A stretch of 63,956 bases of DNA, counting the filler, from Gonapodya sp. JEL0774 (Eukaryota), in assembly GCA_027604505.1 (NCBI GenBank). It is 4 parts of 4 records of this genome, joined end to end, with 100 filler letters (N's around TTAATTAATTAA, not from the genome) between each part and the next. Parts side by side here need not be neighbours in the genome. Positions count along the whole stretch, not along the records: positions 54,538 to 63,956 come from JADIIX010000412.1; 3 more parts are not named here. One strand, given 5' to 3'. The notes beneath the pieces were generated by a model that ran no database searches, was not told the origin of the DNA, and worked only from the letters and a program-made list of their open reading frames with translations. The stretch's first letter is position 1; each line of letters starts with the position of its first letter. Positions 6,201 to 63,956 of this stretch are shown here, one piece after another. The translations under genes and the position numbers were made by a program.

Positions 6201-9181
6201 GTCGACGGAAACTTTCACTCAAATGTAGGTCAGAGTGTTCTCTTGCCGCTACCCTTCCCGCATTAAAATCCTATGGAAATCTGGATACATGTTATTGCAG
6301 GACATCTACTCCTGCTGGTGGGCCGTTTGTTGCAGGATCAGGCGATACCACCACGTCCACAGAGACTAGCATGAGTACACCCATCTCCTCGACCGAAATA
6401 ACTTCCTCCCAAACAACTTCCGCTGGGACATCAGAAAACTCATCGGCCACCTCAACGATCGAAAGTTCGCGTACTGTTCCTTTGTCCACCGAAACAACGG
6501 CTTCGGGATCCACATCCATTGAGATATCAGTCGAGACGTCAGCCTCAACCACCGAGCGCACTAGCACTCTTGGCTTATCCACCGAGACCAGCTCTATGGA
6601 GATAACCTCGACCACCACCTCAGAGCTCCCGTCATCCACCCACAGCACGGGCTCCTTCAGTCCATCAGCTGAGACCACCACATCAGAAATAACTACGACT
6701 GAAAGCTCAGAGATCCCCACTACGACTGTTGACATCACGAGCACTCCGATTTCATATTCGTATTCTGAGACCAGCACCTTGGAAGCAACATCGACTGAAA
6801 CCTCAGAGACTTCCACGACAATCTTCAGTATCACAAGTATCCCCACGTCGTCCACCGAGACAAGCGTCTCTGAATATAGCTCAACTGAGACTTCGACCCA
6901 GACGTACGTAACTGAGCCCACTTGTTGTTCACTTTCCCATTTGAGACCTATCTGTATGCGGATGTTTCTACTTGCAGACAAACACCGTTCGTGGCAGGAT
7001 CAGGCGATACCACCACAGAAAGTACAAGTACACTCGTCTTGTCAACTGAAACCCCTTCCTCCGAAGTGACTTCTACAGAGACGTCCGAAGGCACACCGAC
7101 CTTGACTACCACCGAACTGTCAGTTGAGACGTCAACAGCGACCACCGACAGCGCGAGCACTTTTAGCTCTTCCACTGAGACTAGCTCCTCGCAAGTGACC
7201 TGGACTGAAACCTCAGAGTTCTCCATGACATCCACTGATAACACAAGTACCCTCGGCCCGTCTACTGAGACATCCGTAGCTGAAGCAACTTCAACTGAAG
7301 TTTCGGAGATCCCCACAACAACCGATGAAATCACAAGCACTGATTCTGCGACCAGCGTTTTGGAAACACCCACTGAAACTTTAGAGTCCCCCACCACAAC
7401 TATTGAAAGCACTACTACTTGGATTTCATCTACCGAGACGGAAACTGCTTCGATGGGAAATTCAGAGACCTCCACTATTACGACTGAAAGCACAAGTACT
7501 CTCACAACCTCCGGTGAACGAACCTTAACTGAATATTCGACGTCATCTGTCACTACATCTACCGAAATGAAATCGACCAGTGAGGTCACGACGACTGAAA
7601 CTATTACCACAACACGAACTAGCTCGATGCAAGTATTCGCTTAAGCATCATCCACTTTCCTTTACCTCCCGCATCTACAATTCCCGTTTATATATCTTCA
7701 CAGGACGACCACAACCGCTGGGTCAGTTCGCAGCTGCGATACAATCCACCAGAATTATCTGAATGGCGTCACAATGAATGCTCAAGATTACAGCGACTGG
7801 ACAGCATGGTAAGGTAATCTGAACAGAATTCAAATCATCACTATGACATGTACCTGGCGGATGCCTTTTCTTCCCTTCAAACTGCAGGTGCTGCAATACC
7901 TGTAAGTCCGACTCTTGTGTTCACTTGTTACGTGTGTGGCTGAACATTTTGGTTTGTACCGCAGGGTTCCCCGACGGTATAGGAGGCAGTACGAACACTC
8001 GAAGCTGCGATACCATCCACCAAAAGTATGTGAACGGTGTTTCAATGAGCGCTCAAGACTTCAATGACTGGGAGACATGGTATGACGCAAACTTTCGAAA
8101 TAATGCGACTGCTTGGAGCTGACTCTATATCTCTCCTGCTCATATGCTCTAGGAAATGTTCTACTTGTGAGTGGACTTGGTGCGTTTTGTTTTTGGTAGG
8201 ATCAGCCAGCTCACATGCCGTTGGACTTTTGTAGGGTTCCCCGGCGGTATCGGATCAACCAACACCAATAATCGGAGCTGCGACACGATTCACTTGAATT
8301 ATCTCAATGGAATCATAATGACTGCTCAGGACTACAACGACTGGGCTGCATGGTACTTCCGTGGTTATTGTATTCTGCTATTCGCCGAGTTGATTGAACA
8401 TGTGCTATCTTTTGTTTCCTGTCGCATCCAGGACTTGTAATACTTGTACGTCTACGCCTCCGCCCTCACCGCGAGTGATACGTTATGAAGTTCTCTTGTA
8501 TCTTCCTCAGGGTTCCCGAACGGAATTGGTGCTGGAACCGCCACCCCCCGGAGCTGCGACACAATTTACAAGGCGTATGTTGACGGAATTTCCATGAAAC
8601 CTCGAGACTTCAGTGACTGGGCGTCGTGGTATGTGGCGTCCTTTTTTGTTTTCGGTGGTGGTTTGGCCAGCGAATTTGAACACACCCACCCTGTATCCGC
8701 CTCTTTGCATTCACCCCACTATCTCAGGAATTGCAATACTTGTAAGTTGCTATCAGATTCAGCACTTTGACCTCAATTCTCTAATGCCGAGTGTAACTTG
8801 CAGGGTTCCCTGGTGGTATCGGGGGTGTCACCTCCACGACACGGAGCTGCGACACGATCTACCAGAGGTACCGAAACGGAGAGAGGATGACCGTTCGAGA
8901 CTACCGCGATTGGGCGGCTTGGTGAGAAGCTTTGCTAGGTAACGCCGATCTTCTCGTCGTGATCTTGATCCCTGGCATTCCCGCACACCGTTGTTCCCTC
9001 TCTTGACCAACGTTCGTTCCCTCGCCGAACGTTTTCAGGGCGTGCAACACCTGTGAGTACAAACTCAACTGGCGTTAATGTCAGTTTGAATACACTAACA
9101 CGTCTTTATCAATTGCCAGGGTTCCCGGGCGGTATCGGTGCTCGCCGCAACAGGCGCCCGGTTTTCAACCGATCTCTCTAA
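3298..9181 (+). CDS. Multi-exon secreted mucin-like protein: signal peptide, Cys-rich N-terminus, long Ser/Thr-rich stalk, five C-terminal Cys/Trp repeats
   Basis: MPSSGLGFLTLVVLVLSVTAQ signal-like start followed by CKADSDCRNGNC and a GTAAGT donor; S/T-rich ORFs 5719-7644; the exon chain from 7703 to 9181 splices in frame to TAA at 9179-9181. Internal gap at 4534-4632. That the whole span is one gene is inferred. Confidence 0.75.
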
Positions 9182-13572: not shown

Positions 13573-15796
13573 ATGACCCATACAATAGGGTCCCTGGACA
13601 TCGACGGCAATGCTCGCGTTCAAATTGGACACACTATCAACTACAACGTCTCGAGGTAAGCCCCACCTTTCTTTCGAAGCCACAGGAAGAACGCTTGTTG
13701 CCTCTCACTCTGTCGAGGTCAGACCCGCGATCGAAGATGTGTCTCCAAAATTTAATGCAGGACCGAAACATTACATCCCGTATCTGAAGAACGGGAAGTT
13801 CGTAGGGCGCACAGGTGCACTCGAAGCTCTGGAAAAGAAGCTGTTTGACATCAATACCAGCCGAAAGGTTGCTATCGTGGGACTGGGCGGGGTTGGAAAA
13901 ACACAGCTTGCATTGGAGTTCGCCCACCGGATGAAAGAAACGCATAAGGACTACTGCATATTCTGGTTGTCAGCAGTCAGTATGGAAGGCTTTGAGAAGG
14001 AATGCGGGGAGATTGCGAAGCAATTGGGAATACTGCAGGGTGCAGGAGGCAAGGACGATGCGAAAGATGCGGTCAAACGGTATTTGAGTAGAGAAGAAGC
14101 AGGGAGATGGCTCCTAATTCTTGACAACGCGGACAATATGGACATAGTAATGGGAGCTGGGCATACTCCTGGAATACACAACTACCTTCCCCAGAGTATG
14201 GAAGGCCGGCTAGTTTTTACAACTCGCAGTCTGGACATCGCGCACGCGCTCACACAGGGACAAACAGTTACTCTCACATCTATGAGCCCACAGGAAGCGG
14301 CGGACCTTCTCAACATGTCACTAAATGAGGAGCGAAAGCATTTACTCAGCGAAGAGTCCAACACCACTGAACTTCTTGAGGAACTCACTTACCTACCATT
14401 GGCTATCACCCAAGCCTGCGCATACCTCAACAGGAACCAGACGACAACAATACAAAAGTATATGGAGTTTTTGAGAAACAAAGAGCTCAAAGGACCTTGG
14501 CTGTGGGATTTCTACGACCACGCAGGGAACCGCAAGGACCCTGTAGCAAAAACGTGGTTGATATCGTTCGACCAGATCCGTACGCAAGATCGAAACGCCG
14601 CAGATCTCTTGGGCTTCATGGCGTGCATTGAACCAAAAGCGATCCCTCGAACCATATTACCCACGATAGGTGACGAAAATGACATGGAAATTGCCATCAA
14701 TACCCTGGTGGGGTACGCATTCGTGACACATCGTTTGGACAAGGACTCAGGAAAGGACTTTTACGATCTCCACCGGCTCGTGCACTTGGCAGCCGGCGTG
14801 TGGCTCCGCGAGCTTGGTGATGCGCCACGGAAGACAAGAGAGGCGATCCGCCACATCGCGACGGTGTTTCCGACCGACGACTGGGCGAACCGGGAGCAAT
14901 GGAGGGCGTACCTGCCGCACGCCACGAAGGTGCTCGAAGGCGGCGAAGGTAAGGAGCTGGCAGAGAGGTACGACCTGTGTTTTCGAGTCGGAGGATGCTT
15001 GCAGGTCGACGGACGCGTGCGAGAGGCGGTGCAGTGGCTTGAGCGATGCGAGAGCGGCAGGCGGGACGTGCTGATACTGGCAGAGGACCACCCCAGCTTG
15101 TTGACGACGCAGAACGACCTGGCCTGGGCGTACCTCTCCGACGGGCAGGTCAAGAAGGCCGTGCAGCTGTACGAGCGCGTGCTGGTGACGTGGGAGACAA
15201 CACTGGCAGGGGACCACCCCAGCTTGTTGACGACGCAGAACAACCTGGCCGGGGCGTACCTCTCCGACGGGCAGGTCAAGAAGGCCGTGCAGCTGTACGA
15301 GCGCGTGCTGGCTGTTTGCGAGCGGATATTGGCGGAGGACCACCCCGATCGGTTGGGGACGCAAAACAACCTGGCCGTGGCGTACCTTTCCGACGGGCAG
15401 GTCAAAAGGGCCGTGCAGCTGCTGCAGCATGTCGTCGCTGTCCGTCGGCGAACACAGCGCGAGGACCACCCGGACCGAGTGGGCTCGGAATGGTGGCTCG
15501 CACACGCGCTCGAGGAGGACCGCGCGAGCCTGGGCGGCGTGGGCGTGGGCGTGGGCGTGGGCGTGAGTGTGGGCGTGGGCGTCGGCGTGGGAGTGGGCAC
15601 GATTGTAGGCGAGGGCGAGGTGAGCGACGAGGGCGGCGGACAACGCCAGGCCGACGGACGACACCAGCGTGCAGCAGCAGCAGCAGCCGTGTCGGCAGAG
15701 GAGGTCGGGCACGCACGTGCAGGGAGTGTGAGAACACGTGGTGGCCGCGGGGGTGGCGTGCTGCGGAAACTGTGGAACACGCTCACTAGGACATAG
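13573..15796 (+). CDS. Fungal NLR (NB-ARC + TPR) with N-terminal HET-s-related amyloid motif; exons 13573-13655 and 13723-15796
   Basis: FVGR, P-loop GLGGVGKT, Walker B LLILDNAD, LPLAITQA, LHRLVH, and 42-aa EDHPxxLxTQNNLAxAY TPR repeats. The GTAAGC...TCAG intron 13656-13722 joins MTHTIGSLDIDGNARVQIGHTINYNVS in frame to RPAIEDVSP. Confidence 0.9.
15083..15490 (+). repeat. 126-bp near-identical tandem TPR-coding repeats (~3.2 copies)
   Basis: G(A/G)GGACCACCC starts at 15083, 15209, 15335 and 15461. Confidence 0.95.
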
Positions 15797-18323: not shown

Positions 18324-18423
18324 NNNNNNNNNNNNNNNNNNNNNNNNNNNNNNNNNNNNNNNNNNNNTTAATTAATTAANNNNNNNNNNNNNNNNNNNNN
18401 NNNNNNNNNNNNNNNNNNNNNNN
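18324..18423. other. Artificial contig linker
   Basis: N44-TTAATTAATTAA-N44, with stop codons in all six frames. Confidence 0.95.
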
Positions 18424-19450
18424 TCTTTGCTCTTCAGAAAATATGGCATGAAGACATGGGTTGCTTCATCCACAACAAGTAGCATGTACCTTTCATGGTG
18501 GATGCTTTCAGTCCTCACAGGTCCAAAGATGTCTGCATGTACCCTACCACCAGGTCTTGTTGCTTTCTGCCTTGGTGGCAAGTTGAATGGGAGCTTTGAA
18601 GCTTTCCCCATAAGGCATCCTTCACATACAAGTGGGTGATAACTCCCCCTGGGATCACATCCCTCCACTTTGCCAGCTCTAATTAGCTTAATAAGGTCCT
18701 TGAAATTCAAATGTGCATATCTGACATGTGCCATTGCAAGATTGTGACTTGACTTTAGATCTGACTTGGCCACCGCATGATTGTCAGACTTGCTGTTAGT
18801 CTTCCACTTGGACTCGGTTCTCTTTACTTCTGCTTTGCGAGCGGTTTTAAGTGGCTCTTCCAGCACCAACTTTGACTTGTCTTGCATTACAGGTTCAAGG
18901 TCCCCTTCTCCTTCAACATCTTGCTCCTCCAGCATCAGAGTTGTGTGTTGACTTAAAGCAGTTGTCTTTGAGACAATAGAAATAGGCATGTCATACAAAT
19001 GTTGGCCACGAGACATTCCTCTGCACAGTTCATGTCCATTGCTGTCAAAGAAAACACATTCATTTGTGAAACCAGGAAAAGTTGCAGTTATGCCAAGTTT
19101 CTGCAAGGACTTTCAGCAAAGTAGATCTAGCTTTAGGATCAAGAATGACAATGGGAATATCCCAATCAGAATAAGAATCAGTGCTGTGAAATCTCAATGT
19201 TAAAGTTCCCCTTCCAAGGGGATTTGGAGGTCTGACCCTCTGCAGCCATTCTAATAGTGATAGTTTCTGAGACAAAATCCTTGAGAGCAGAATGCTCAGA
19301 AGTGATGCAATCAGTTGCACCAGAATCAACTAAAACTCTGCCAGATCTGCTGGTTGTTGCAGGAAAAGCATGTGCATTCAGAGCCATTGGCTCACCATTT
19401 GGATCAAGAGTAGAGACATAAGCAAGCAACCCAACTGGGATCTTATCTGC
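18424..19450 (-). mobile_element. Ty1/copia pol fragment (protease, GAG-pre-integrase, integrase N-terminus), frameshifted
   Basis: LVDSGATDCIT protease motif; HVRYAHLN...CEGCLMGK; VHADIFGP; YMLLVVDEAT. Confidence 0.9.
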
Positions 19451-19949
19451 ATCAAATATCTGTAAAGTTTGAGACCTAGATGATTGATTGTCCCCTCCCC
19501 AACAGACCCACGAGCCAAACTCTAATGGGGTTGTGGTCCCCCCCTGTGACTTTGCGCAGTGGGGCTGGAGGGGAGGGGAGGGAGCCCCACGCAGCAGGTT
19601 CTTGTAGCAATGCTGCACCACAGTGCTGCACAGACTCAAATCTGCAGACAGGGCCTCTCATCCACTCATCATATGGCACGACATGATCCACAAAATTGGA
19701 CTTCTGACTCAAATACCCGAAAGTGTCCTGTGCACACAACTGAGCTTACAAAATATGCCATTCATCACACCCAGATTGACATACAAGCCTTTTCCCACAC
19801 TCTTTATACTCCTGAGAACAACCAAACTTGACAGGTTACTGTTGGATACATGTGATGTGTCTGTGTGTGTGTGTGCGATGTATGTAGTATATATTTGTAT
19901 GATGGACCGCTACACATAGATGAGTGCGCTGGCTTGTAATATACTAAGT

Positions 19950-21820
19950 TCCGCACACAAGAACATACCTGTATTCTGACACAAAACCTGCTCCTGCTGA
20001 ATCTGCTAGTTCTGGTAAACAAAAATCTGTGACCTTTAAGACAGATTCACATGGTGGGAATGCAAGATCTAGTTCAGGACCTGCAGAAGCATCTAAGGGC
20101 AAGGCAAAGGCACCTGTAAATCTCAAGATAAATTCCGAATCAGCAGGTGGCCCCTCTAGATTGGAACCAGGAGCTCAACGAAGGGATGTTGCACCAAATG
20201 AATTGACTGACCCAGCCTTCAATCCTCCAGAATTCATTTATGCTAAGCAAACAAGTGTTGAAGATGGCAATGGCACCAGGGGGAGTGATGCAGAGAAAAT
20301 TGATGGTTCTCCTGAAGCCAACCTGGTTATTGTGGAAAGCACAGAGCTGATACCAGTCCCAACATCCCACAGAGAGGCCATACAAAGCTTCAACTCAGAC
20401 TCTTGGAGACAAGCATGGCTGTAGGACATGGGTACATGGGAGCTTGTAGATCATCCAAAACATCAAGCTGTTCTCTCTGTGAAGCCTATACCAAATGTTA
20501 AGGCTAGATTGAAATTTGGATGCCCTTTGTTCATGGAGAGCCACAGGAGGAAGTTTACATGGAGCAACCACATGGGCTTGAAGAAGTACCAGGCAAATTA
20601 TGCCTTCTCTTCAAATCTCTGTATGGACTGAAGCAATCAGCAATGTGTGGTTTAAGAAATGGAGGAGTATTCTACTGTCAATGGGGTTCACTCAGTTGCA
20701 GTCTGATCATGTGGTCTTTGTCAAGAAAGATGAGAATGGAAAGCCACTTATTGTTGTTGGTGGGCATGTTGATGATTTATTGGCAGCAGCTGTCTCAGAT
20801 GCCCTTCTAGATGAATTTTCTTTGACACAGCACTTGAAAGTGAAATCTGGAAAGCTGGAAGTTTTCCTTGGAGTTCAAACGCACCAGAACCCTGTGACTG
20901 GTACCATCTTCATCCACCATCATAGCAAAATTATTGACCTTTTGGAGGAAGTTGGAATGTTGAACGTACAACCTGTTGGCACACCTTTGCAAGCTGGTGT
21001 AAGACTTACGAGAGCTGATTGTCCCAAGACTGATGCTGAGAGGCAGGATATTGACCATGCACAATTCAGACATCTTGTTGGAATATGTTTGCACATTATG
21101 GTTATGACAAGACCAGACATATGTCCTGCTGTAAAAATATGAACTGAGGTTTTAGACAATCCAAGCCATAAGCATTTGGATGCATTGAAATGGCTCCTGA
21201 GATATTTGGCTTGCACAAAGGACTTGGGAATTTGATACCTAGGCCACAAGGAACCTGAGAAACAACATGTAGCAACCTCTTTACATGGTGACTATGATGC
21301 AGACTTTGTCACAGATGTGCATGCCAGAAAATCACACAGTGGCTATGTTTTCCTGATGACTGGAGGTGCAGTGAGTTTGTCCAGCAGGAAACAGGAACTA
21401 GTGGCCACCTCACCTACACATGCAGAGTATGTTGGTCAAGACCATGCTACCAGGGAGCTCTTGTGGATTACCAAGTTTGTCAAGGAGCTTGGACTTAGTT
21501 GCTCAGGTGCAATTAATGTTTATGGTGGAAGAGATCCAGAATGCCCCACCTTCATAGGAGACAATCAGGGAGCAATAGCACTGGCCAAGAACCCTGTTTG
21601 CCACAAGCTTTCTGAACACTTTGACCTTAAATCCCACTTTCTCCATGAACAGCTTGAGAAGGGGATTCTTACTGCCCCGCCCATGTTAATGTTGCTGACA
21701 TTATGACTTAGCCAGTACTAAAGCAGTCTTTTTAGCAACATCAAGCATCAATAGGGGTGTATTCTATTGCTACGTGAGATGATGGTAAACTTCACACTGA
21801 AGTGTTTGTTTCAGGGGGAG
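19950..21820 (+). mobile_element. Decayed Ty1/copia reverse transcriptase-RNase H region with polypurine tract
   Basis: GTWELVD, EEVYMEQPHG, KSLYGLKQS, HVDDLL, TRPDI, SSRKQELVATS, DNQGAIALAKNP; several stops and frameshifts; PPT AGGGGGAG ends at 21820. Confidence 0.92.
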
Positions 21821-36467: not shown

Positions 36468-36567
36468 NNNNNNNNNNNNNNNNNNNNNNNNNNNNNNNNN
36501 NNNNNNNNNNNTTAATTAATTAANNNNNNNNNNNNNNNNNNNNNNNNNNNNNNNNNNNNNNNNNNNN
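36468..36567. other. Artificial contig linker
   Basis: N-flanked TTAATTAATTAA at 36512-36523. Confidence 0.95.
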
Positions 36568-54437: not shown

Positions 54438-54537
54438 NNNNNNNNNNNNNNNNNNNNNNNNNNNNNNNNNNNNNNNNNNNNTTAATTAATTAANNNNNNN
54501 NNNNNNNNNNNNNNNNNNNNNNNNNNNNNNNNNNNNN
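54438..54537. other. Artificial contig linker
   Basis: N-flanked TTAATTAATTAA at 54482-54493. Confidence 0.95.
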
Positions 54538-54802
54538 CTCCATCATGACATCGGCGGGACATTTCACCAGCCACGCTCACAAAAATATACTGTTTGTTTC
54601 CTTTATGTGGTGCTTTCTTGAAACAACAGTCCAGCACGTTGGTCGACGCTGCATAACCCGTTCCGTCACCAAGCCATTTGGTGCCACCAACATTTCCTGG
54701 CATGATGGCGTAAAACTCTGCGATGAAATCTTTCACTTTATCAGGCGTGCTCACAGAAACCGGTCCATCCACCTCCCAGTATAGGTCGAGATTGGCCTGC
54801 AT
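54538..54802 (-). CDS. Paralog of the primase-helicase lacking the Prim-Pol domain (3' truncated by the contig end)
   Basis: MQANLDLYW|EVDGPVSVSTPDKVKDF...HKGNKQYIFVSVAGEMSRRCHDG aligns to the start and then the Zn-finger region of 55892-58750. Confidence 0.85.
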
Positions 54803-54877
54803 TGCAAAAGATCGTAACAAAATCTTTAATTTTTAAAATGGTGGTGATGGGATGAGATCTGAAACTTTTCGAAACCA

Positions 54878-55035
54878 TTACAGGATGGGGATGGGGATGG
54901 GGATGGGGATGGGATGGAAATCTTCAACTATCACAGGATGGGGATGGGATGGGATGGAAATCTTCAACTATCACAGGATGGGGATGGGATGGGATGGAAA
55001 TCTTCAACTATCACAGGATGGGGATGGGATGGGGA
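54878..55035. repeat. 40-bp GGGAT-rich tandem repeat (~3.5 copies)
   Basis: TCACAGGATGGGGATGGGATGGGATGGAAATCTTCAACTA at 54931 and 54971, partial at 55011, and a longer variant at 54878. Confidence 0.95.
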
Positions 55036-55098
55036 GTCTGAAACTTTCGAAAACTCTATTAGGATCCGTGATTGCAACTTTCGCTTTTGCACAATCCA

Positions 55099-55810
55099 GT
55101 AAAGGTGTAAAGTAGACTTTGAAACTCAACTGTAGTTGCAGAGTTGTGTTCCAATCTGTACATTTTTTACGCTCCGTAGTGTTAACTTTTCTATATCATC
55201 TTTACACCTTTACATCTTTACATGTAGGCAACTACTGTCAACCTGCCTGTACAAAAGGTGTAAAAACGTGTAAAGATGTAAAGATGTAAAGGTTGTGCAC
55301 CACTGTGAATTTAATGTACATATGTAAAGGTGTAAAGGTGTAAAGTAGACTTTGAACTCAAATGTAAGTTGCAGAGTGTATTTTTACTCTGTATACATTT
55401 GTTTATGCTCCGTAGTGTTAACTTTTCTAAATCATCTTTACACCTTTACATCTTTACATATAGGCAATTACTGTCAAACAGCCTGTGCGAAAGGTGTAAA
55501 AACGTGTAATGATGTAAAGATGTAAAGGTTGTGCACCACTGTGAAGTTTAATGCATATATGTAAAGGTGTAAAGGTGTAAAGTAGACTTTGAACTCAAAT
55601 GTAGTTGCAGAGTTGTATTGCACTCTGTACATTTTTTTTTTGTTACGCTCCGTAGTGTTAACTTTTCTATATCATCTTTACACCTTTACATCTTTACATA
55701 TAGGCAATTACCGTCAAACTGCCTGTACAAAAGTTGTAAAAACGAGTAAAGATGTAAAGGTTGTGCACCATTGTGAAGCCCGGTGTATATGTTAAGGTGG
55801 AAAGGTGGTG
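55099..55810. repeat. Three ~235-bp AT-rich tandem units with inverted 8-bp iterons (putative replication origin)
   Basis: GTAAAGGTGTAAAGTAGAC at 55099, 55332 and 55569; each unit has TTTACACC/TTTACATC runs facing TGTAAAGA/TGTAAAGG runs. The repeat is certain; the origin role is inferred. Confidence 0.9.
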
Positions 55811-55891
55811 TAAGGGTGATGAAATAAAAATGTTGTGTCGTTTTCTAATCTGGTGTTTGTAGCTTTTATTTTTTATTCTCTTTTCACATTC

Positions 55892-58750
55892 TTACAGTGT
55901 TATCGCGTCGCTCTGAGCCCACGCATGCCCAAGAACACATGTGTTCTTACCGCGAATCAGACCGACATTCTTTCCCATTTGCCTGAGTTTGCCGCCAATA
56001 TCGCGAATTGCTTTCAGCCTTCCACCTCTTCTTTGAGAGTTAGACTCCACAAATTCAGGGTAGTGTACTTGCAGTGCCGCTTCACCATGCCTCGATATAT
56101 ACCACCTGCGGAATAGTATGAGGATTTCGTCAAGAGGTATATCACTCTCTCTATCGGCCACAATCGATTCTTGAAGATAGTCCCACAAGGGATTGTTGCT
56201 GGCAATGTAGTCTTCACGCCTTTCTTGCACCTCCGCAGGTCTCTCCAGTCCCTCCGTTCGGAACTTTTTGTAGTAGTCAAGGAGCACTCCCAGGAAAGCG
56301 TTTCGCCACTCTCTACCGAATCGGTCAGCCATCTTTGCGTCAGCGCGGTACACGTGATTTGCACTGTCAGTGATACCACTGACAACAAATGAAGAAGTGA
56401 AGGGCAGAATATCGATTCTACGCGTTGCCCCATCAGATGTATCGTCAGCGAAGCTTGGGGCGTGGTTGACACAAATTGCAAAGTGCCATTGTGGCTCAAT
56501 TGTCACCTCTTCACGTGCATACACCGCGCGGTTTGAGATTTTGTTAGCTCCTGTGAGTTCCTTTATGACCTTGGTATTGATTTTTGCACCAACTTCAATC
56601 TCCTCACAGAACACTCCGCGTGCCCTTGCGATTTTTGCAATCGCTGAGTTGGGCGCGCGAGCGTCAGTACCCGCCTTCTGGGTAAATAACTCTGTTTTCG
56701 CCATTGCCCCATAGTCTCCGAGGACTGCCAGTACCGCTTTAGTGAGCATACTCTTGCCATTGGCACCACTTCCTTCAAAAAACATGAGCTTGGCATCTTT
56801 GATCTCCCCAGAGAGCATTGACGCAAGGAACTTCAGAAGATAATCACGGTTCTCAACGTCTGGCTGAATTTGAGTCAGCACCTCCATAATGCAACCCTTC
56901 ACGGCCTCATCGCGTGCCTCAGTAGCGTTGAAAGCATAACCAGTGCTCATAGTAACGTAGTCAGCTGGCTGAGCATCTCTGAAGTACATGGGACTTCCGG
57001 CCACGAATGCATCCAAGTCAAGAACGCCGTTCTCAAAGCCCAAAAGATTGCGCCTCGCGTCTCTGAGTCTCTGAAACTCAGCGCTCTTCTTACCAAAAAA
57101 GTTCTCGGTGAGTCCCATATAGCCTTTTAGCTTGTAAGGTTCACCAATTGCAGTGAGTGTGTCGCTGATCTTCTTCGCCTTGCGTGGTTCGTTGAGATCG
57201 GCGTAGTGATTCCATGCGCGGTTATAGTGTCCGCGGAAGTCACTCGCACTCAATAAGAGCCTCGCGATATTCGTGAGACTCATTGGCGTCCACTTGCCAT
57301 CAGTGAAGGCGACCCATGTTTTGCTTCTTTCAGCGTCGTCAACATGAACGACATCCGCATCAGCGTAGTACTCCTCTATAAAATCCGCAATGAGCACCCC
57401 ATCGCCTGTCAACGAGAGAAGGAATGCATTGTTGAGTCGGTCCGACTCAAAGAATTGAACATTGTCCTTGACAAATTCGTTCGGCCCAATGTCAGTGTCG
57501 CTGATATTGTTGTTGATGGTAATGTTTGTAACATTAAATTGCTGTATGACAACAAAGAATTTTCCAAGATTGGCATACTTGTCCGTTGGAACGGCAATGC
57601 CACCGTTGGCTGGAACTTTGAACAAGCAACCTGCAGTGTCGCAGGATATGACTAGTCCCGTACTGCTTGTAGTTGCACTTAAAGAACCTTTCCCACACAA
57701 AATACATCGGTCTTGTCCATAGCATTTCGTCAAAGTACCTTCGAATCCCTTCGAGTCGGGTTTCAAGACCATCGTTATGGCATCGTTGCCCGGAACCGCG
57801 TAGTTCACATGTTCAGCAGCTTCCTTACGAGCGAGCTCTACGAGCTCCGGATTGACAAAGGGCTTCACAGGGAATAGCTCCCGGAGCACCTGAGCAATTT
57901 CCTGAGTGATCTTTCGAGTGCCCCACTTCTTATCTCTACACTCTCCATCATGACATCGGCGGGACATTTCACCAGCCACGCTCACAAAAATATACTGTTT
58001 GTTTCCTTTATGTGGTGCTCTCTTGAAAAAGCAGTCCAGCGTGTTGGTCGACACTGCATAACCCGTTCCGTCGCCAAGCCATTTGGTGCCACCGACGTTT
58101 CCCGGCAAAATGGCAAAGAAGTCTGCGATGAATTCCTTCACGACATTAGGCGTGCTCGCCGAATCCGGCACATCCACCTGCATGTGTGGACGATGACCGA
58201 TACGTTTGCTACCACCTGCACTTTCACGCAGCGCCTTTGCCAGCCATTCTGGCATTTCCTCAAGTTCGCGCTCCCACGGTGAGAAGCCATCCAGCCATGT
58301 GTATCGCCGTAGGTCTGGCTCTCCCGGAACCTGAAACGAGCTCGGTGGAGCTATGATCATCCCACCGTGACTTCGCACATCTGCACAACCGCCGAGAAGG
58401 TCGGATGTGGACTTGATGTCCGCGAGGGCTTCGCTCCATCGAAAGTAGAGATGGCGGCCACCTCGTTGCGATCGAGCGGTGACTGTGTCCGGTTGACTTT
58501 GGCCGACATCCTCGAGGAATCGTTCCCAGCCGCTGACGTCGTCAATGTCTAAAACGACTATACCAGAAGCAGGGCCAGTCTGGATCGCGACGGCGTTTTT
58601 GAGAGGTACGTTCTTCGCTGTGTCCAGATCAAGGTTTTGCCAGTTTCGCGGAGGTTGCAGGTCTTTCTTGTTACGCTGTTCATTCCAGGAAAGAGATATT
58701 GGGAATGCAACCCATTTCAGCTGCCAGTACGGGTTGAGATTGGTCTGCAT
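55892..58750 (-). CDS. Intronless 952-aa Prim-Pol primase/polymerase + Zn finger + D5_N + SF3 helicase (viral/mobile-element D5-like)
   Basis: AIQTG..IVVLDIDD, SQRGGRHLYF, DVRSHGGMIIAPPS; C..H..N...CHDGEC; LLGFENGVLDL, YVTMSTGY; Walker A GSGANGKS, VFCEE, IKELTG, CVNHAP. The start at MQTNLNPYW is supported by the paralog. Confidence 0.93.
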   Translation of the reverse strand: MQTNLNPYWQLKWVAFPISLSWNEQRNKKDLQPPRNWQNLDLDTAKNVPLKNAVAIQTGPASGIVVLDIDDVSGWERFLEDVGQSQPDTVTARSQRGGRHLYFRWSEALADIKSTSDLLGGCADVRSHGGMIIAPPSSFQVPGEPDLRRYTWLDGFSPWERELEEMPEWLAKALRESAGGSKRIGHRPHMQVDVPDSASTPNVVKEFIADFFAILPGNVGGTKWLGDGTGYAVSTNTLDCFFKRAPHKGNKQYIFVSVAGEMSRRCHDGECRDKKWGTRKITQEIAQVLRELFPVKPFVNPELVELARKEAAEHVNYAVPGNDAITMVLKPDSKGFEGTLTKCYGQDRCILCGKGSLSATTSSTGLVISCDTAGCLFKVPANGGIAVPTDKYANLGKFFVVIQQFNVTNITINNNISDTDIGPNEFVKDNVQFFESDRLNNAFLLSLTGDGVLIADFIEEYYADADVVHVDDAERSKTWVAFTDGKWTPMSLTNIARLLLSASDFRGHYNRAWNHYADLNEPRKAKKISDTLTAIGEPYKLKGYMGLTENFFGKKSAEFQRLRDARRNLLGFENGVLDLDAFVAGSPMYFRDAQPADYVTMSTGYAFNATEARDEAVKGCIMEVLTQIQPDVENRDYLLKFLASMLSGEIKDAKLMFFEGSGANGKSMLTKAVLAVLGDYGAMAKTELFTQKAGTDARAPNSAIAKIARARGVFCEEIEVGAKINTKVIKELTGANKISNRAVYAREEVTIEPQWHFAICVNHAPSFADDTSDGATRRIDILPFTSSFVVSGITDSANHVYRADAKMADRFGREWRNAFLGVLLDYYKKFRTEGLERPAEVQERREDYIASNNPLWDYLQESIVADRESDIPLDEILILFRRWYISRHGEAALQVHYPEFVESNSQRRGGRLKAIRDIGGKLRQMGKNVGLIRGKNTCVLGHAWAQSDAITL

Positions 58751-58785
58751 TGCAAAAAATCGTAACAATATTTTAAGTTTTAAGT

Positions 58786-58830
58786 TGGGATGGGGATGGG
58801 GATGGGGATGGGATCGGATGGGATGGGATG
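58786..58830 (+). repeat. (GGGAT/GGGGAT)n tract upstream of the primase-helicase start, G-quadruplex-like
   Basis: TGGGATGGGGATGGGGATGGGGATGGGATCGGATGGGATGGGATG. Confidence 0.8.
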
Positions 58831-58980
58831 CCACAAGAGGATTTGGAAGCCTGTTACTGCTGATGGGAAATTTGGAATCAACGCTAGACGCATAGTTACA
58901 CGATGGGTACTCGTTTATTATGACCCTTGCTGTATTATTAACACCACCTGACCCAAACACTGTATAAAAACTCATACGAA

Positions 58981-61591
58981 TTACTCATATTCACAAGGTT
59001 CAGACGAATCCGAATCCAAATCCGAATCCGAGTCTGGTGTCGGGTCAGGTGTCGAGTACTTTGAGGTTGTCCTAGACGATACGTTGGCCTTGACACCTTC
59101 CATCATGGTAAAATTCACACGTCGCTGCCCCACATGGCAGACAATGGATTTTCTACCATTCCCAGGGAATGCCACCCATGGAAGACCACATGAAAGCGCG
59201 GTCCGAACAATTGGTGTATCGGTGACGAGGAAGTCCGTGGTGATCGGGGCCCCCTTACGGTGGATGAGTGATGTGGTTGTCACATGGAGTTTGTCTCGCT
59301 TGCCACTATCGACAGCCCAAGACACCGTCTTACTTGTGAAACGGTTTTCGGTACATGCGGGCTGGGTTCAAGAAACGATCAATATGCGCATTTCAACGAG
59401 CAAAACCAAATGTGACAACGTACAAAGTTTGACACATATGATCCGAAAATGCGGTTCAATTCCTTAGTCGGAATACTTGTCTTGCTTTCGCTGCTACCGG
59501 ATGTAACGATGGGCTGTTGTACGAGATACTTTTTCACTCGAGCCAAAAAAGCGTTCGCATCTTCTCCTGCAATCACAGCTGCAGTCGAGTCGCGAGGTCA
59601 ATGAAGAGAATGCATCTGTTCTTACATGCGAACAGGCACTCACGGAGCTGTTCCCCTTCATCGTGAAAGGACCGCGCAACCGTTCCGACAGCGTCCGCCT
59701 CACTCGCCTGATGCTCCTCGAGTGTATCTGCAGATACGCTACCACCCGATATCTCCGCAATGGGGTCGTCGCGTCTGTTTCGTGCTGCACTAGCCTCCGT
59801 CTCAACGTCGGACAGAATGAACAGCGTTGCCGCGAGGTTGTCCGATGTGTTCTCGAGCACAAACGGTACCGTTGAATGAATCACTGAATTCATATTTAAC
59901 GCGTACACCAGGGAGTCCTTGATGAGGCGTAGGGTAGGCGAGGTGATAATTGCAAGCAGCTAAGTAGTGCAAGGGCACAATGTGAATCGAAGATTAGGTC
60001 CTTTTCTATGGCCTGCAAAGAAACACATACATGACGACTGGAACCAACGTCGACGGCCCAACGATCGCCGGGGGCGATACATTTCGACGTCAGCCGGGTC
60101 ATCGTCACCGAGAGACCACCGTCGACGTTGTCGTATATTTCTGCATATGAGAATGGTCCATTGAATAGTGTGTTCAAAATAAACAGAATACGACAGCGAC
60201 TCACTCAGCCCCGAAAGTGACAGACATGGTGAAGAGTCCTTTCCAGAGCCCGTACCCTCGTTGGTATGGGCAATGGGCTGCGCTCTTACACCGACATCCC
60301 GTGACGGGGGTTCCACCCGATGTATGTTGTCGATGACTTTCCCCTTGCCCTTAGATCGGTTCGGAGATGGCAAGGATGGTTGCGAGGGTGGCGGCGACGA
60401 TGGCGGCAGGTGTGATGGTACCGATGGTGCCGATGGGGTCGTGTGTTCGTGTCGACCAAAAGAGTCGCCGCCACTCGCCTCCTCTTCTCCATACCCTGTG
60501 ACTTCAAAGTCCACACCATCGCCACCGACTCCGTCAAAGTTCACGTCCGCCTCCGCACCGCTCTCCTCCTTATGCTCCTCCACATCGCCCCCCTCCTCCT
60601 CATCCTCCCGGTCCTCATCCTCGTCCCCTTCTTCGCCGCCCTCCTCATCCTCATCCTCATCCTCATCCGCCTCGTCCCCCTCTTCGCCGCCTTCCTCCTC
60701 GACCTCCTCCTCGGCATCAACCTCATGTACCTCTATTGTGGATGATGGGGGCTGTGATGTGGGTGGTGGTTCGCGTGTCGATTCGGCGAGGAGAGCAGCC
60801 TCCTGACTTTGCGCTGCTCGTTCTGCTTCTCGCTTTTCCGCCCTCCGTTTTTCGACATCGAGCAGTTGAGCCACTCGCACTTCATCCTCACGCCTCGCCA
60901 ACTCTCGCTTATCCTCCCTCAGCTTTTCCGCCTCACGAATCTTCTCCGCTCGATACTCAGCTTCTCTCCTTACTTCCTCGCGACTCTTCGCATCTCGCTC
61001 TTCAGCTTCTTGCCTTGCTGCCTCTCGCCTCGCCACTTCGACCTTCCTTTCCTCCTCCTGTTTCTCGCACGCTGCCCAAAAATATGCAGGGTTGGCTGTT
61101 CCGTGGGAAGTTGATGGGACATCGACGGGGGCACGAAGACCTGTTCTTCTGTAAATCACACATACGCATGTACTTGAGAGACTTGGAAAGCCCAGAGTCG
61201 ATACGGAGTGACATACGCACCTTCCTCTGACCCCCGGTTCGTACACAATCGTGCCTCGTTCGCGTCGATTCGCTCGCCTCAATGCTACATCTTCTGGAAC
61301 TACCCCGCTCGCGTTCCCTGATAGTTCAGTCAATGCTGGACGCGAAGGTTCCTGATTGACTCTGGGTGCGAGTTCAGTATCGGAGCAGAAGAGTTCCCCT
61401 CCGTGAGATGCGCTGGGATTGAAGTAAAATCGGGGGGCAGAAGAAGTTTTTGTCGAAGAGGCGGAGCGTGAGGAAGAAGGGGTGATGGTGGAAGCAGATG
61501 AACGGGAGGAAGAAGGGATGGTAGAAGAGGCGGAACGGGAGGAAGCAGAGGAGCGGGCGGGAGGAGCGAGAGACGATGCAGGTTGAGACAT
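58981..61591 (-). CDS. Hypothetical spliced gene, possibly disrupted (Ser-rich N-terminus, coiled coil, acidic tract)
   Basis: Long ORF 59960-61591 with a GTGCGT..TACAG intron near 61151-61220 and GTGAGT..GCAG near 60141-60206; downstream ORF pieces continue to 58981 with a break at ~59575. Confidence 0.5.
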
Positions 61592-61774
61592 TTGGTGGCG
61601 ATTGTTTGGCGATCGCGATTCCTTGCGGCTGTCGAAAGTGGCCGCTGGTGCTTGGAATGGTTGCGTGTCCCTCCGCCAGACTTATTTGTGTGCTCAGTCC
61701 AGCTGCACCAGGAACAAAATTTATGACCTTTGCTTAAGTTTACTTTTTGTCAAACCATGAACGATACATAAAGA

Positions 61775-62815
61775 ATGGCTTCACGAATTAGGAGTCGACG
61801 CTCAAAAAAACGCGCATTGGTCAGGCGAGGTGGAAGCCCAGGTAAAGTCGAGCCCAAAAGGATAGGTGAAGGTTCGTTCGGATGCGTGTATTCACCTGCC
61901 TTCGATTGCCTCAACAACGTATATAACACCGACAAACCTGACCAATATGTCACACGAATTGGTCGTAGGAGCGACGTGCTCGCAAGACTAGAACAAGAAG
62001 AACGTGTCAGATGGATTGATCCGGACGGAGAGTTCACTTTGATACACGAGAGATACTGTGAAAACACCACAGGAAAAGTGAATGAATCATGTAAGGTATG
62101 TCGAAAGGGGAATTGTTTTGCAATGATATATCGCAACGGAGGGAAGTCACTGCATGATTTGATGAAAGAACGGACACTCACATTTGAGAATATTTGTAGA
62201 ATCTACAGTCTTTGGGCTCAGGCATTGTCCCGCTTTCATGAGAAGAGATACATGCATGGGGATGTTCATCGTGGTAACGTTCTTGTAACAGAGAGCGATC
62301 ATGGGGATTTCAAGGTTCGCGTGATTGATTACGATTTTACACAAAGCTACCAAATGTACTACGACCATATTGGCAGAGTGCTTAATCAACATGTAAAACC
62401 TCTGGTCGCGGATTTTTCACCTCCTGACGAGGTACTGTGGGAGTATATTTTAGATTACAAGAGAGAACCTTTCAACACATCTAACTTCGACCATTTATTC
62501 CCACACGAGAATCTTGAACCATATTGGGAGACGATGGACTTGAATACAGAGAGGCAAAGACACTATAAGTATCTGTTTTCCAAATGGGGTTGGGATTATA
62601 TGGTGAAACTCCTAAACAATAGAGATGCGAGGAAGAAATTTCCGATGGCGAGAGATGTGTATATGTTGGGATTTGATTTTGCAACAACTCTGAATATAAT
62701 GCGTATGGCTCACAAAGTAGATGTCAAATATGTAAATCTCATCCAAAGTATGACACGGTTCGATCCAATGAAGAGAATTAGCCTATCAGAGGCCGCGGAA
62801 AAGTTCTTGGCTTGA
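61775..62815 (+). CDS. Intronless Ser/Thr protein kinase of giant-virus style
   Basis: Basic N-terminus ending RRGG, IGEGSFGCVYSPAFDC, HGDVHRGNVL, VIDYD, DVYMLG, DPMKR. Confidence 0.85.
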   Translation: MASRIRSRRSKKRALVRRGGSPGKVEPKRIGEGSFGCVYSPAFDCLNNVYNTDKPDQYVTRIGRRSDVLARLEQEERVRWIDPDGEFTLIHERYCENTTGKVNESCKVCRKGNCFAMIYRNGGKSLHDLMKERTLTFENICRIYSLWAQALSRFHEKRYMHGDVHRGNVLVTESDHGDFKVRVIDYDFTQSYQMYYDHIGRVLNQHVKPLVADFSPPDEVLWEYILDYKREPFNTSNFDHLFPHENLEPYWETMDLNTERQRHYKYLFSKWGWDYMVKLLNNRDARKKFPMARDVYMLGFDFATTLNIMRMAHKVDVKYVNLIQSMTRFDPMKRISLSEAAEKFLA

Positions 62816-63078
62816 ATTCGCTACACTGTGCAGGATGTTTGATGCAGAGGAGCGGGTGCACCAGGTGAAGTCCACACACAAAATGTCTGGCGAAGGGACA
62901 CGCAACCATCCCAAGCACCAGCGGCCACTTTCAACAGTCGTGACAGCCGCAAGGAATATCAATCGCCAAACAGTGGCCACCAAATGTCTCAATTCGCATC
63001 GTCCATCTCTCATTCCTGTACAAATCAAAATCGAGCACTCCTCGGAGTACGAGTTTTTTTTTCAGTACGAAGCATACT

Positions 63079-63383
63079 TCATGAACAATAAACGTGTTCT
63101 ACTACGGAAGAAATTGTGTGAGATCGTCAATGGAAATACTGGATTGAAGGCAGTCGATTTGATTGTGAAACTTTGCGGCGAGTCGATTCCAAATTGCGAT
63201 CAGTCTGACATACATGATGTGCTGGATGAATGCGTGAAGCATGGAGATGTAGTTGAGATCTCTTACGTTCTTCCGTCAATGTCATATCGAGAGAAATCAA
63301 TGTACTTCCCAGGTGGAACATCTTTCACCAAACTCAGACCGGCTCACTGCATGCACCCTGGTACTCCACTGGAGCGGACATAA
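63079..63383 (+). CDS. Small intronless hypothetical protein
   Basis: C-terminal part of ORF 62835-63383 from MNNKRVLL; globular-looking sequence (GDVVEISYVLPSMSYREKSMYFPGGT). Confidence 0.5.
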
Positions 63384-63611
63384 AAGGATCAACAACATGT
63401 ATTTCTCCCTATAGTGTCGTCTTTGTAGAGCTAGCAGTACCCAACTTGTGTATTCTTGGGCACTCGCTCGCATGGAGGGTGCAACTGCTTCTCAAAACCA
63501 TGGACATATATAGTCAAATATGGTCAAAACTGGACGTCGACGTCGACGTCAACATCTTCAAAAATTCGAGAAATATTTTTTTTGTGAGTGTAGATGTAAG
63601 AAAAGTATCAG

Positions 63612-63956
63612 ATGCATGTCTCCACATCAGATGCAGCCCATCATTTTGGAGTGTCTGCTCGAACTATCCGCCGATAGTGTGATTCCTCAAAAGCTAACTC
63701 CTTCCGAACGCCAACAGGTGATCGACGCATCCTCATTGACCCATCTCACCAAAAACTCAATCGCTCCGTGGTCACCGGAACTAATCGGGAAAGTGTCGCG
63801 TATGTGCGAGTCTCTACACAAAAACAGAGAGATGATCTACAGCGACGACAAGATTTCATGGCTGACAAGTTCCCCAGATACAGAATTGTCGCCGACATTG
63901 GATCAGGACTCAACTTCAAAAGACGCGGACTATTATCCCTTCTGGAACTCGCGAAG
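63612..63956 (+). mobile_element. tnpA: IS607-family TnpA serine transposase, inactivated by an in-frame stop, 3' truncated by the window end
   Basis: MHVSTSDAAHHFGVSARTIRR*CDS..RTPTGDRR (MerR-like HTH) followed by YVRVSTQKQRDDLQR and DIGSGLNFKRRGLLSLL; TAG at 63675-63677. Not in the ORF track. Confidence 0.92.

Follow-up and report, generated by a model that had tools for sequence, protein, structure and literature searches.

The record JADIIX010000412.1 of the Gonapodya sp. JEL0774 assembly (GCA_027604505.1) ends in the middle of a damaged reading frame for an IS607-family transposase (TnpA), and this raises the question of what element the frame belongs to, whether a Fanzor2 nuclease goes with it, and what kind of DNA carries it. 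Directly visible at this contig end are homology to tnpA, a stop codon within it, an open +1 frame that closes with a family motif, phased repeats upstream, and the end of the contig itself. The answer that we consider probable is that the record preserves the left end and the first third of an IS607-type transposon, that its tnpA carries one nonsense codon, that the overlapping +1 frame is likely the N-terminus of a Fanzor2 nuclease, and that the contig, likely derived from a giant virus, ends inside the element.

The window, that is, the whole stretch of 63,956 nucleotides analysed here, joins four records of 18,323, 18,044, 17,870 and 9,419 nt, which are separated by three artificial 100-nt spacers (18324-18423, 36468-36567 and 54438-54537) of the build N44-TTAATTAATTAA-N44. 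Gene neighbourhood across these spacers is meaningless. The last record, 9,419 nt long (54538-63956), stops at 63956, inside tnpA. The protein database likewise places the helicase of this record on a contig of 9,419 nt, and two other proteins of the window on contigs of 17,870 and 18,323 nt. The intron-bearing eukaryotic genes upstream lie on separate records, and integration of the element into a eukaryotic genome is therefore not demonstrated by those genes. Coordinates of the principal features are collected in Table 1.

Table 1. Features of the last record and the spacer that precedes it (positions along the window)
Feature	Position	Strand	Remarks
Artificial 100-nt spacer	54438..54537	.	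last record after spacer, 54538-63956
Prim-Pol + D5-type primase-helicase, intronless	55892..58975	-	Pfam Prim-Pol, D5_N, DUF5906
Ser/Thr kinase, intronless, giant-virus type	61775..62815	+	Pfam Pkinase; ESM Atlas
Candidate left-end junction, GGG flank then GG-N(2-6)-A[AG]C[AT]G[TC]T	63477..63489	+	motif match
Three direct decamer repeats, 10-bp phase, ~20 bp inside left end	63499..63528	+	likely TnpA-binding motifs
ATG-TAA in tnpA frame	63594..63599	+	probably incidental
IS607 tnpA (HTH + serine recombinase, YxRVS intact)	63612..63956	+	nonsense codon 63675-63677; contig end after 115 codons
Open +1 frame over tnpA, likely Fanzor2 N-terminus	63616..63954	+	ends P-F-W at contig end

The initial annotation had read an IS607-type frame with a helix-turn-helix (HTH) and a serine recombinase at 63594-63956, and translation and profile searches bear this out. 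Pfam Resolvase matches the tnpA frame at E=4.5e-6, together with a weak HTH match, and the NCBIfam IS607 transposase model NF033518 matches at E=1.9e-18 (66.7 bits, model positions 2-113 of 187), a score that the end of the record keeps below the model's cut-off of 110. The residues Y64, R66, V67 and S68 of the Y-x-R-V-S motif are invariant in 11 of 11 aligned rows, and the window copy retains all invariant columns of the alignment. Thus, the HTH and the serine recombinase with Y-x-R-V-S that mark the family are present; an intact autonomous tnpA is not (TAG at 63675). In the plus-strand translation of 63594-63956 there are two in-frame stops, TAA at 63597 and TAG at 63675. Of 223 distinct relatives, 137 have Trp in the column of the latter, 60 have Tyr and 18 have some other residue (8 are unaligned), and the codon is TGG in the five close relatives inspected, so that the placing of this stop at a conserved Trp position was correct. 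TnpA is stopped after 21 codons and this copy consequently cannot move on its own; the TAG weighs against an active element and not against membership of the IS607 family. In the +1 frame the same change swaps one residue and does nothing more.

A second transition (CAA>TAA) had been suspected at 63594. It is unnecessary: the true tnpA start is, on alignment with relatives, likely the ATG at 63612, which yields an N-terminus as long as in the nearest of them, and an ATG followed by a stop occurs within 40 nt upstream of tnpA in 8 of 195 relatives, so that chance probably explains the start-stop pair at 63594. Exact-pattern scans of viral and metagenome contigs with the contig end found no second copy of the element, a single-query search with the related locus P0001 found no related viral locus, and a scan for three promoter or ribosome-site motifs was uninformative.

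Over tnpA, the +1 frame has no stop between 63514 and the end of the contig, a run of 147 codons with ATGs at 63520, 63616, 63631, 63802 and 63832. The initial annotation had predicted a Fanzor2 gene just beyond the window. The partner is supported by this open frame and by the relatives, but its place is not: it would start inside the window, from 63616, and its first 113 codons lie within the 63594-63956 that had been assigned to the transposase. The P-F-W at the record end corresponds to the P[FY]W motif of Fanzor2 and pro-Fanzor N-termini, the W of which is found in 92% of 149 relatives. When the TnpA protein is kept and its synonymous codons are resampled, the probability of an open +1 frame is 0.003 (0.0003 with uniform codon usage), and an open +1 frame together with P[FY]W appears in 1 of 20,000 runs. 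Against a profile of 144 relatives the +1 peptide of the window reaches 68.5 bits, near the low end of the 60-102 bits that the profile members span; all 2000 free and 1000 stop-free resamples fall below it (maximum 64.7), and 15 controls reach at most 60.2. The resamples average 38-44 bits: part of the +1 similarity echoes the conservation of tnpA itself, and the excess over this is what the resamples and controls measure. The peptide is 57% identical to the ORF of the related locus L033 over 53 residues. A second ORF overlapping tnpA, a character of IS607 elements, is present in its N-terminal part as this open frame with the family motif, and comparison with relatives makes it likely that the frame encodes a Fanzor2 N-terminus.

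Searches beyond this peptide yielded little. A word-based search with 60 candidates, which is a weak test, found no longer protein matching it at E 0.01, and it has no PHROG match. The window contains no RuvC, zinc finger, omega-RNA or right end; a six-frame search with a nuclease profile gave no match, nor did a six-frame Pfam scan of the record outside the helicase show a nuclease domain. Since the record ends at 63956, the rest of the nuclease is unreadable past the window. An Rfam scan of the record returned three hairpin matches, all below threshold and all within the tandem array.

What an open +1 frame means can be calibrated on related loci. The collection comprises 272 loci from viral, metagenome and GTDB sets, which reduce to 223 distinct ones on removal of 1 without a usable site and 48 duplicates (loci L273-L350, 78 in number, are left out of the counts); loci were sorted by a nuclease profile built on the C-terminal 330 residues of the +1 ORFs, and Pfam confirms the domain in L001 and L037. 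A TnpB/Fanzor ORF overlaps tnpA in +1 in 30 of the first 32 viral loci; the other two have a separate nuclease and a closed +1 frame. Across the 223 loci, the GSGLN site of tnpA has an open +1 frame in 151 of 162 with a co-oriented nuclease versus 0 of 15 with a separate one, in 12 of 23 without a detected nuclease, and in 18 of 23 that are too short to tell. The nested layout holds in 45 of the 50 GTDB loci with a co-oriented nuclease. From 70 codons upstream on, the +1 stop frequency per codon is at most 0.010 in the co-oriented class and 0.03-0.35 in the separate class. Where open loci extend more than 1,700 nt downstream, a nuclease is present in 110 of 122 and its ORF is continuous in 95; of the 27 that lack a continuous nuclease ORF, 12 are without any nuclease match. 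In the window's clade, the first 58 codons around the GSGLN site thus reveal whether a co-oriented nuclease belongs to the element; because the +1 state at this site is informative, a tnpA fragment that is broken or cut short can be assigned to its class even when the DNA downstream is missing.

The closest relatives indicate what would follow. L033 and L034 run on in the +1 frame via a weak HTH_OrfB match to the DPG motif, and L037 is complete, with DPG and a Cas12f1-like TNB domain. The residues D299, P300, E438 and D473 of the rearranged active site are invariant in the +1 ORFs of 34 of 34 relatives. In L034 (2300-3427) tnpA is stopped 8 codons after GSGLN and the nuclease frame is open for 274 codons. 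Among ten relatives with a broken tnpA the nuclease ORF is continuous in five, and tnpA is lost with the nuclease retained in 5 of 140 relatives. The reverse decay route is exemplified by L071, L073, L074 and GTDB loci labelled Thiomargarita, in which tnpA is intact, no nuclease is detected, and the Trp of P-F-W in the +1 frame is a stop. In two giant-virus loci (L178 and L181, from metagenome-assembled genomes, MAGs), Fanzor2 lies on the opposite strand, off tnpA, and yet keeps P-F-W...L-x-[LM]-P; several other non-overlapping Fanzor2 genes retain S-W-F. Motifs that persist in non-overlapping genes are therefore kept for the nuclease itself. A search for a tnpA vestige in the -1 frame of 16 separated Fanzor2 ORFs found none (best E 0.29), so that overprinting is something that we infer only. 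Just downstream of the IS607 element in L005 and L007 (~5955-7623) lies a second element with a Y1-type tnpA-like and a tnpB-like ORF, its family assigned by eye.

The profile of 34 +1 ORFs also connects the overlapped segment to a known structure. Its best PDB match is the mimivirus Fanzor2 9b0l (ApmFz2/L79; E=1e-80), far above other chains. That match starts at profile position 56, in the part overlapped by tnpA, which corresponds to ApmFz2 residue 76; the other TnpB chains tabulated match only from profile positions 91-108. Residues 53-130 of ApmFz2 constitute a Fanzor2-specific N-terminal domain (PMC11832414). Canonical TnpB lacks the N-terminal extension of Fanzor2; the window covers the stretch as far as P-F-W and differs in ending about 40 codons before the ApmFz2-alignable part. 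The accessible text of the ApmFz2 paper (PMC11832414) contains neither 'overlap' nor 'IS607'. Fanzor2 nucleases combine the RuvC-I DPG with a relocated Glu, six residues ahead of the zinc finger (bioRxiv 10.1101/2023.08.09.552727; PMC13565253).

Upstream of tnpA, a candidate left end of the element can be placed near 63480 from sequence motifs. Of the 16 loci in the window's clade, 9 have the left-end motif ahead of tnpA (shuffling predicts 0.09), as do 4 of 58 GTDB loci; these counts are descriptive because the motif was drawn by eye from the same loci. The record has one match at this place (shuffle p 0.02) and two more on its minus strand. At period 10 the decamers that follow show 22 of 30 pairwise matches, a value reached by none of 3000 shuffled sequences and by one of 93 tiles from the rest of the record; at periods 9 and 11 there is no significant signal. 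Short direct repeats near the left end, another IS607 character, are thus in place at 63499-63528, and the TnpA of IS1535 binds a left end of the same 10-bp-phased layout (PMC6188088). IS607 elements also lack terminal inverted repeats and target-site duplications, and they carry matching motifs at the right end, which is not on this record. Fanzor2 elements have a G-rich motif beside the left end (PMC13565253); the corresponding 3-nt motif here is GGG at 63477-63479, next to an end that is placed by a post hoc motif and not by an empty site.

The start codons of the two frames are close neighbours: the tnpA ATG at 63612 and the +1 ATG at 63616 are 4 nt apart (ATGCATG). When a script sets the tnpA start at whichever in-frame ATG is closest to the beginning of the alignment, a +1 ATG lies at -5 to +10 nt of it in 16 of 16 loci of the window's clade (-5 in 2, +4 in 9, +7 in 4 and +10 in 1), loci that are related and not independent; a +1 ATG within -8 to +13 nt is also found in 5 of 21 control loci. 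A +1 ATG within 30 nt of the tnpA start occurs in 12 of 14 giant-virus MAG loci versus 17 of 48 GTDB loci, and the first +1 ATG is at least 67 nt into tnpA in 30 of 48 bacterial loci. In yeast, two out-of-frame AUGs compete as start sites when they lie within about 17 nt of each other (PMC9743702). These facts allow a larger proposal, which we regard as tentative and on balance doubtful: that in giant-virus IS607-Fanzor2 elements the whole of tnpA is nested in the nuclease ORF with starts 4-10 nt apart, between which scanning ribosomes would split so that a single capped mRNA yields both proteins, that a nonsense mutation in tnpA would leave a nuclease-only homing element, that this copy was carried by a virus into a zoosporic fungus, and that the Fanzor2 N-terminal domain was born by overprinting tnpA. 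Twin starts, if real, would explain how a bacterial two-gene insertion sequence is expressed on eukaryotic ribosomes, and also the long disordered N-terminus of some Fanzor2 proteins, which in NlovFz2 comprises 96 residues (PMC10432273). A literature search, with most subscription journals outside its reach, found no description of full nesting, overprinting, or twin starts and leaky scanning for Fanzor, TnpB or IS607.

A mechanism for the intact ancestor can be sketched by analogy, with TnpA transposition and the guided cutting of empty sites taken from the family literature (bioRxiv 10.1101/2023.08.09.552727; PMC6188088; PMC13565253). Dimers of TnpA would bind the motifs in 10-bp phase, bring the two ends together and transpose the element, with no duplication of the target. 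The nuclease ORF is predicted to continue for ~500 codons past 63956 to a DPG-type RuvC and a zinc finger; its product would take up the omega-RNA of the right end and, beside the G-rich motif, cleave the emptied donor sites, with repair restoring the element. One mRNA could give both proteins via the start codons at 63612 and 63616. The TnpA-dead copy in the window would be non-autonomous and may still make nuclease.

The lineage of the element was examined in a quick maximum-likelihood tree. Its 105 TnpA rows are the window, P0001 and P0003 together with the best-scoring loci of four sets: giant-virus MAGs (28), metagenomes (26), other viruses (26) and GTDB (22). The tree carries SH-aLRT support only, and no starred clade in it contains the window. 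The window tnpA groups with L033, L034, P0001 and L037 (SH-aLRT 94), and the enclosing clade of 19 rows (SH-aLRT 94) holds three giant-virus MAG loci and 0 of the 22 GTDB loci. The best GTDB TnpA is 47% identical to that of the window, compared with 53-58% for the close relatives. Tree and neighbour genes together point to a giant-virus lineage and not to bacteria.

The neighbours are of a piece with this. Look-alikes of the kinase in the ESM Atlas are 100% viral in all 8 of the rows listed, most commonly Nucleocytoviricota, with scores of 0.96-0.98; it has 410 relatives, which are distant (judged on the best 150 of the 410). Among named proteins, the helicase is closest to two that carry the label Gonapodya sp. 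JEL0774 (48% and 41%), followed by matches of at most 34% over short stretches; it is also similar to phage primase families, and as a single query it found no related viral locus. No host gene is recognisable on the 9,419-nt record, and Pfam searches, including a six-frame scan of the non-helicase parts, turned up neither a capsid nor a polymerase gene, nor a join to host sequence. Measured against what is expected of endogenous giant viruses, the 9.4 kb carry a D5-type primase-helicase and a kinase and none of the core genes (capsid, PolB, packaging ATPase). The GC content is 0.48, against 0.49-0.51 in the other three records, and tetranucleotide correlations are uninformative (0.19-0.30 between this record and the host, 0.22-0.46 among host pieces). 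With its kinase type, its primase-helicase and the TnpA tree, the contig is likely giant-virus-derived. Fanzor2 belongs to eukaryotes and their viruses, and the viral-type kinase, the fungal-labelled helicase relatives and the giant-virus MAG clade favour such a host here. The eukaryotic or viral context claimed by the initial annotation is supported, then, as a non-bacterial setting of giant-virus type, judged by kinase and tree; the eukaryotic genes, in contrast, sit on other records.

How far the preferred reading, a truncated IS607-Fanzor2 element with one dead gene, can be pressed depends on what lies past the contig end and on the TAG itself. The same element could have a nuclease that is broken or deleted beyond 63956, the open +1 frame being the leftover of a recently dead copy. 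We think this rather unlikely: the 27 of 122 open relatives without a continuous nuclease ORF, the five of ten broken-tnpA relatives whose nuclease is broken as well, and the deleted helicase copy on the same record argue for it, but 147 visible +1 codons run without a stop next to an intact helicase and kinase, and the stopped tnpA of L034 accompanies a nuclease frame that is still open. It is less probable again that the TAG is a sequencing or assembly error in an intact, possibly active element. The TAG is the sole clear lesion in a copy that keeps all invariant columns and has a left end that looks intact; against an error, stops often arise in nature by transitions in Trp codons, as this one would have done, and relatives that lose tnpA and retain the nuclease (the 5 of 140) show the same outcome. 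That the TAG is read as an amino acid under an alternative genetic code, leaving tnpA intact, is hardly credible. The stop does fall in a Trp column, but across the 2,098 codons of the record's four long ORFs TGG occurs 29 times and TAG never internally, and one of these ORFs has TAG as its terminator, which refutes record-wide TAG recoding.

The remaining alternatives concern the setting. It is possible, though less likely than not, that the record represents a free giant virus, or another extrachromosomal element, co-sequenced with the eukaryote; this touches the setting only and is compatible with the preferred reading. The absence of a recognisable host gene or junction from the 9,419 nt and the intronless, intact state of the long genes fit it, and in zoosporic fungi some giant-virus contigs are found at high titre (PMC13533422); a GC content near that of the other records speaks for the opposite, as do the deleted second helicase copy here and the two diverged paralogues in a fungal assembly, which is what repeated genomic relics would show. 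A bacterial (pro-Fanzor) IS607 on a contaminant contig, an outcome for which the initial annotation had allowed, is very improbable and largely refuted. The nested layout is common in bacteria (the 45 of 50 GTDB loci noted above) and the helicase matches phage primase families too, but the closer TnpA identities lie outside GTDB, the window's clade has no GTDB row, the kinase look-alikes are all viral, and the helicase is closest to fungal-labelled proteins.

The truncated IS607-Fanzor2 copy is real and new, but of a familiar kind. Giant viruses are known to carry IS607-Fanzor2 elements, and IS607 fragments have been reported from eukaryotes (PMC3627910, PMC3673617, PMC10530073, PMC10691335, PMC10432273); to these the present locus adds one truncated, transposase-dead copy, on a contig of giant-virus-like character within a eukaryotic assembly. 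With the IS607-type Fanzor2 elements of giant viruses and amoebae (ACa-1/-2, CRv-1, ISvMimi_1/_2, ISvAR158_1 and ISvNY2A_1; PMC3627910) it shares an HTH and serine-recombinase tnpA, giant-virus-type neighbours and, in its nearest relatives, a DPG nuclease; unlike the ACa-1/CRv-1/ISvMimi group (PMC3627910), it is represented only by its 5' third, has a nonsense codon in tnpA, and lies on a record of a eukaryotic assembly with a helicase closest to fungal-labelled proteins. The cyanobacterial pro-Fanzor IS607 elements (bioRxiv 10.1101/2023.08.09.552727) are similar in nesting tnpA with a +1 nuclease and, in GTDB loci, in P[FY]W-LWLPT; they differ in forming a separate TnpA clade and in that the first bacterial +1 ATG is mostly deeper in tnpA. 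IS607-like sequences with stops and frameshifts have been reported from fungi, oomycetes and amoebae, with viruses proposed as vectors and with overlap of ORFA and ORFB (PMC3673617); as far as its accessible text goes, that survey covers Amoebozoa, Ascomycetes, Basidiomycetes and Stramenopiles only, and its section on the overlap omits the extent. Overlap of IS607 ORFs is also stated, with no extent given in the accessible text, in PMC6188088. The giant-virus DNA of zoosporic fungi (Mycodnaviridae; PMC13533422) resembles this record in its intronless genes on contigs of their own, its occurrence in early-diverging fungi and its D5-like helicase-primases; the present record differs in having no capsid or polymerase gene, and the accessible main text of that paper mentions neither 'Fanzor' nor 'Gonapodya'.

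Other features of the record are noted for what they are. The 5' part of a second, internally deleted primase-helicase occupies 54538-54861 (corresponding to 57943-58179 and 58718-58818), head to tail with the intact gene, with 89% identity over 237 nt, a part that is still open. The left end of the record breaks within this copy. Both record ends fall in repeated DNA, the left one visibly, in the helicase copy, and the right one presumably. Just past the helicase stop lies a 236-bp array of 2.8 copies with many internal inverted repeats (55099-55759), and a GGATG-rich 40-bp array of 3.5 copies is at 54895-55033; as a guess, these two arrays could be a replication origin or a terminal structure of a helicase-bearing element. 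On either side of the kinase gene are the arms of an inverted repeat of ~130 bp (83-90%; 61559-61686 and 62880-63016), each of which contains an ATG-TCT-CAA start, one opening a minus-strand ORF of 543 codons; the arms are possibly a duplicated leader or an invertible cassette. That ORF (59960-61591, minus strand) encodes an acidic, coiled-coil-like protein of 543 residues and, like the 182-codon ORF at 62835-63383 (plus strand), is without a Pfam, NCBIfam or PHROG match. The last 100 residues of the latter (63081-63380) score as protein-like, with weak Atlas matches, all below 0.9. On the other records, positions 18372-21142 (second record) hold fragments of a copia-type LTR retrotransposon with GAG-pre-integrase and RVT_2 matches on opposite strands, and 13610-15796 holds an intronless NB-ARC and TPR gene with a 126-bp repeat, the architecture of which we take to be NLR-like.
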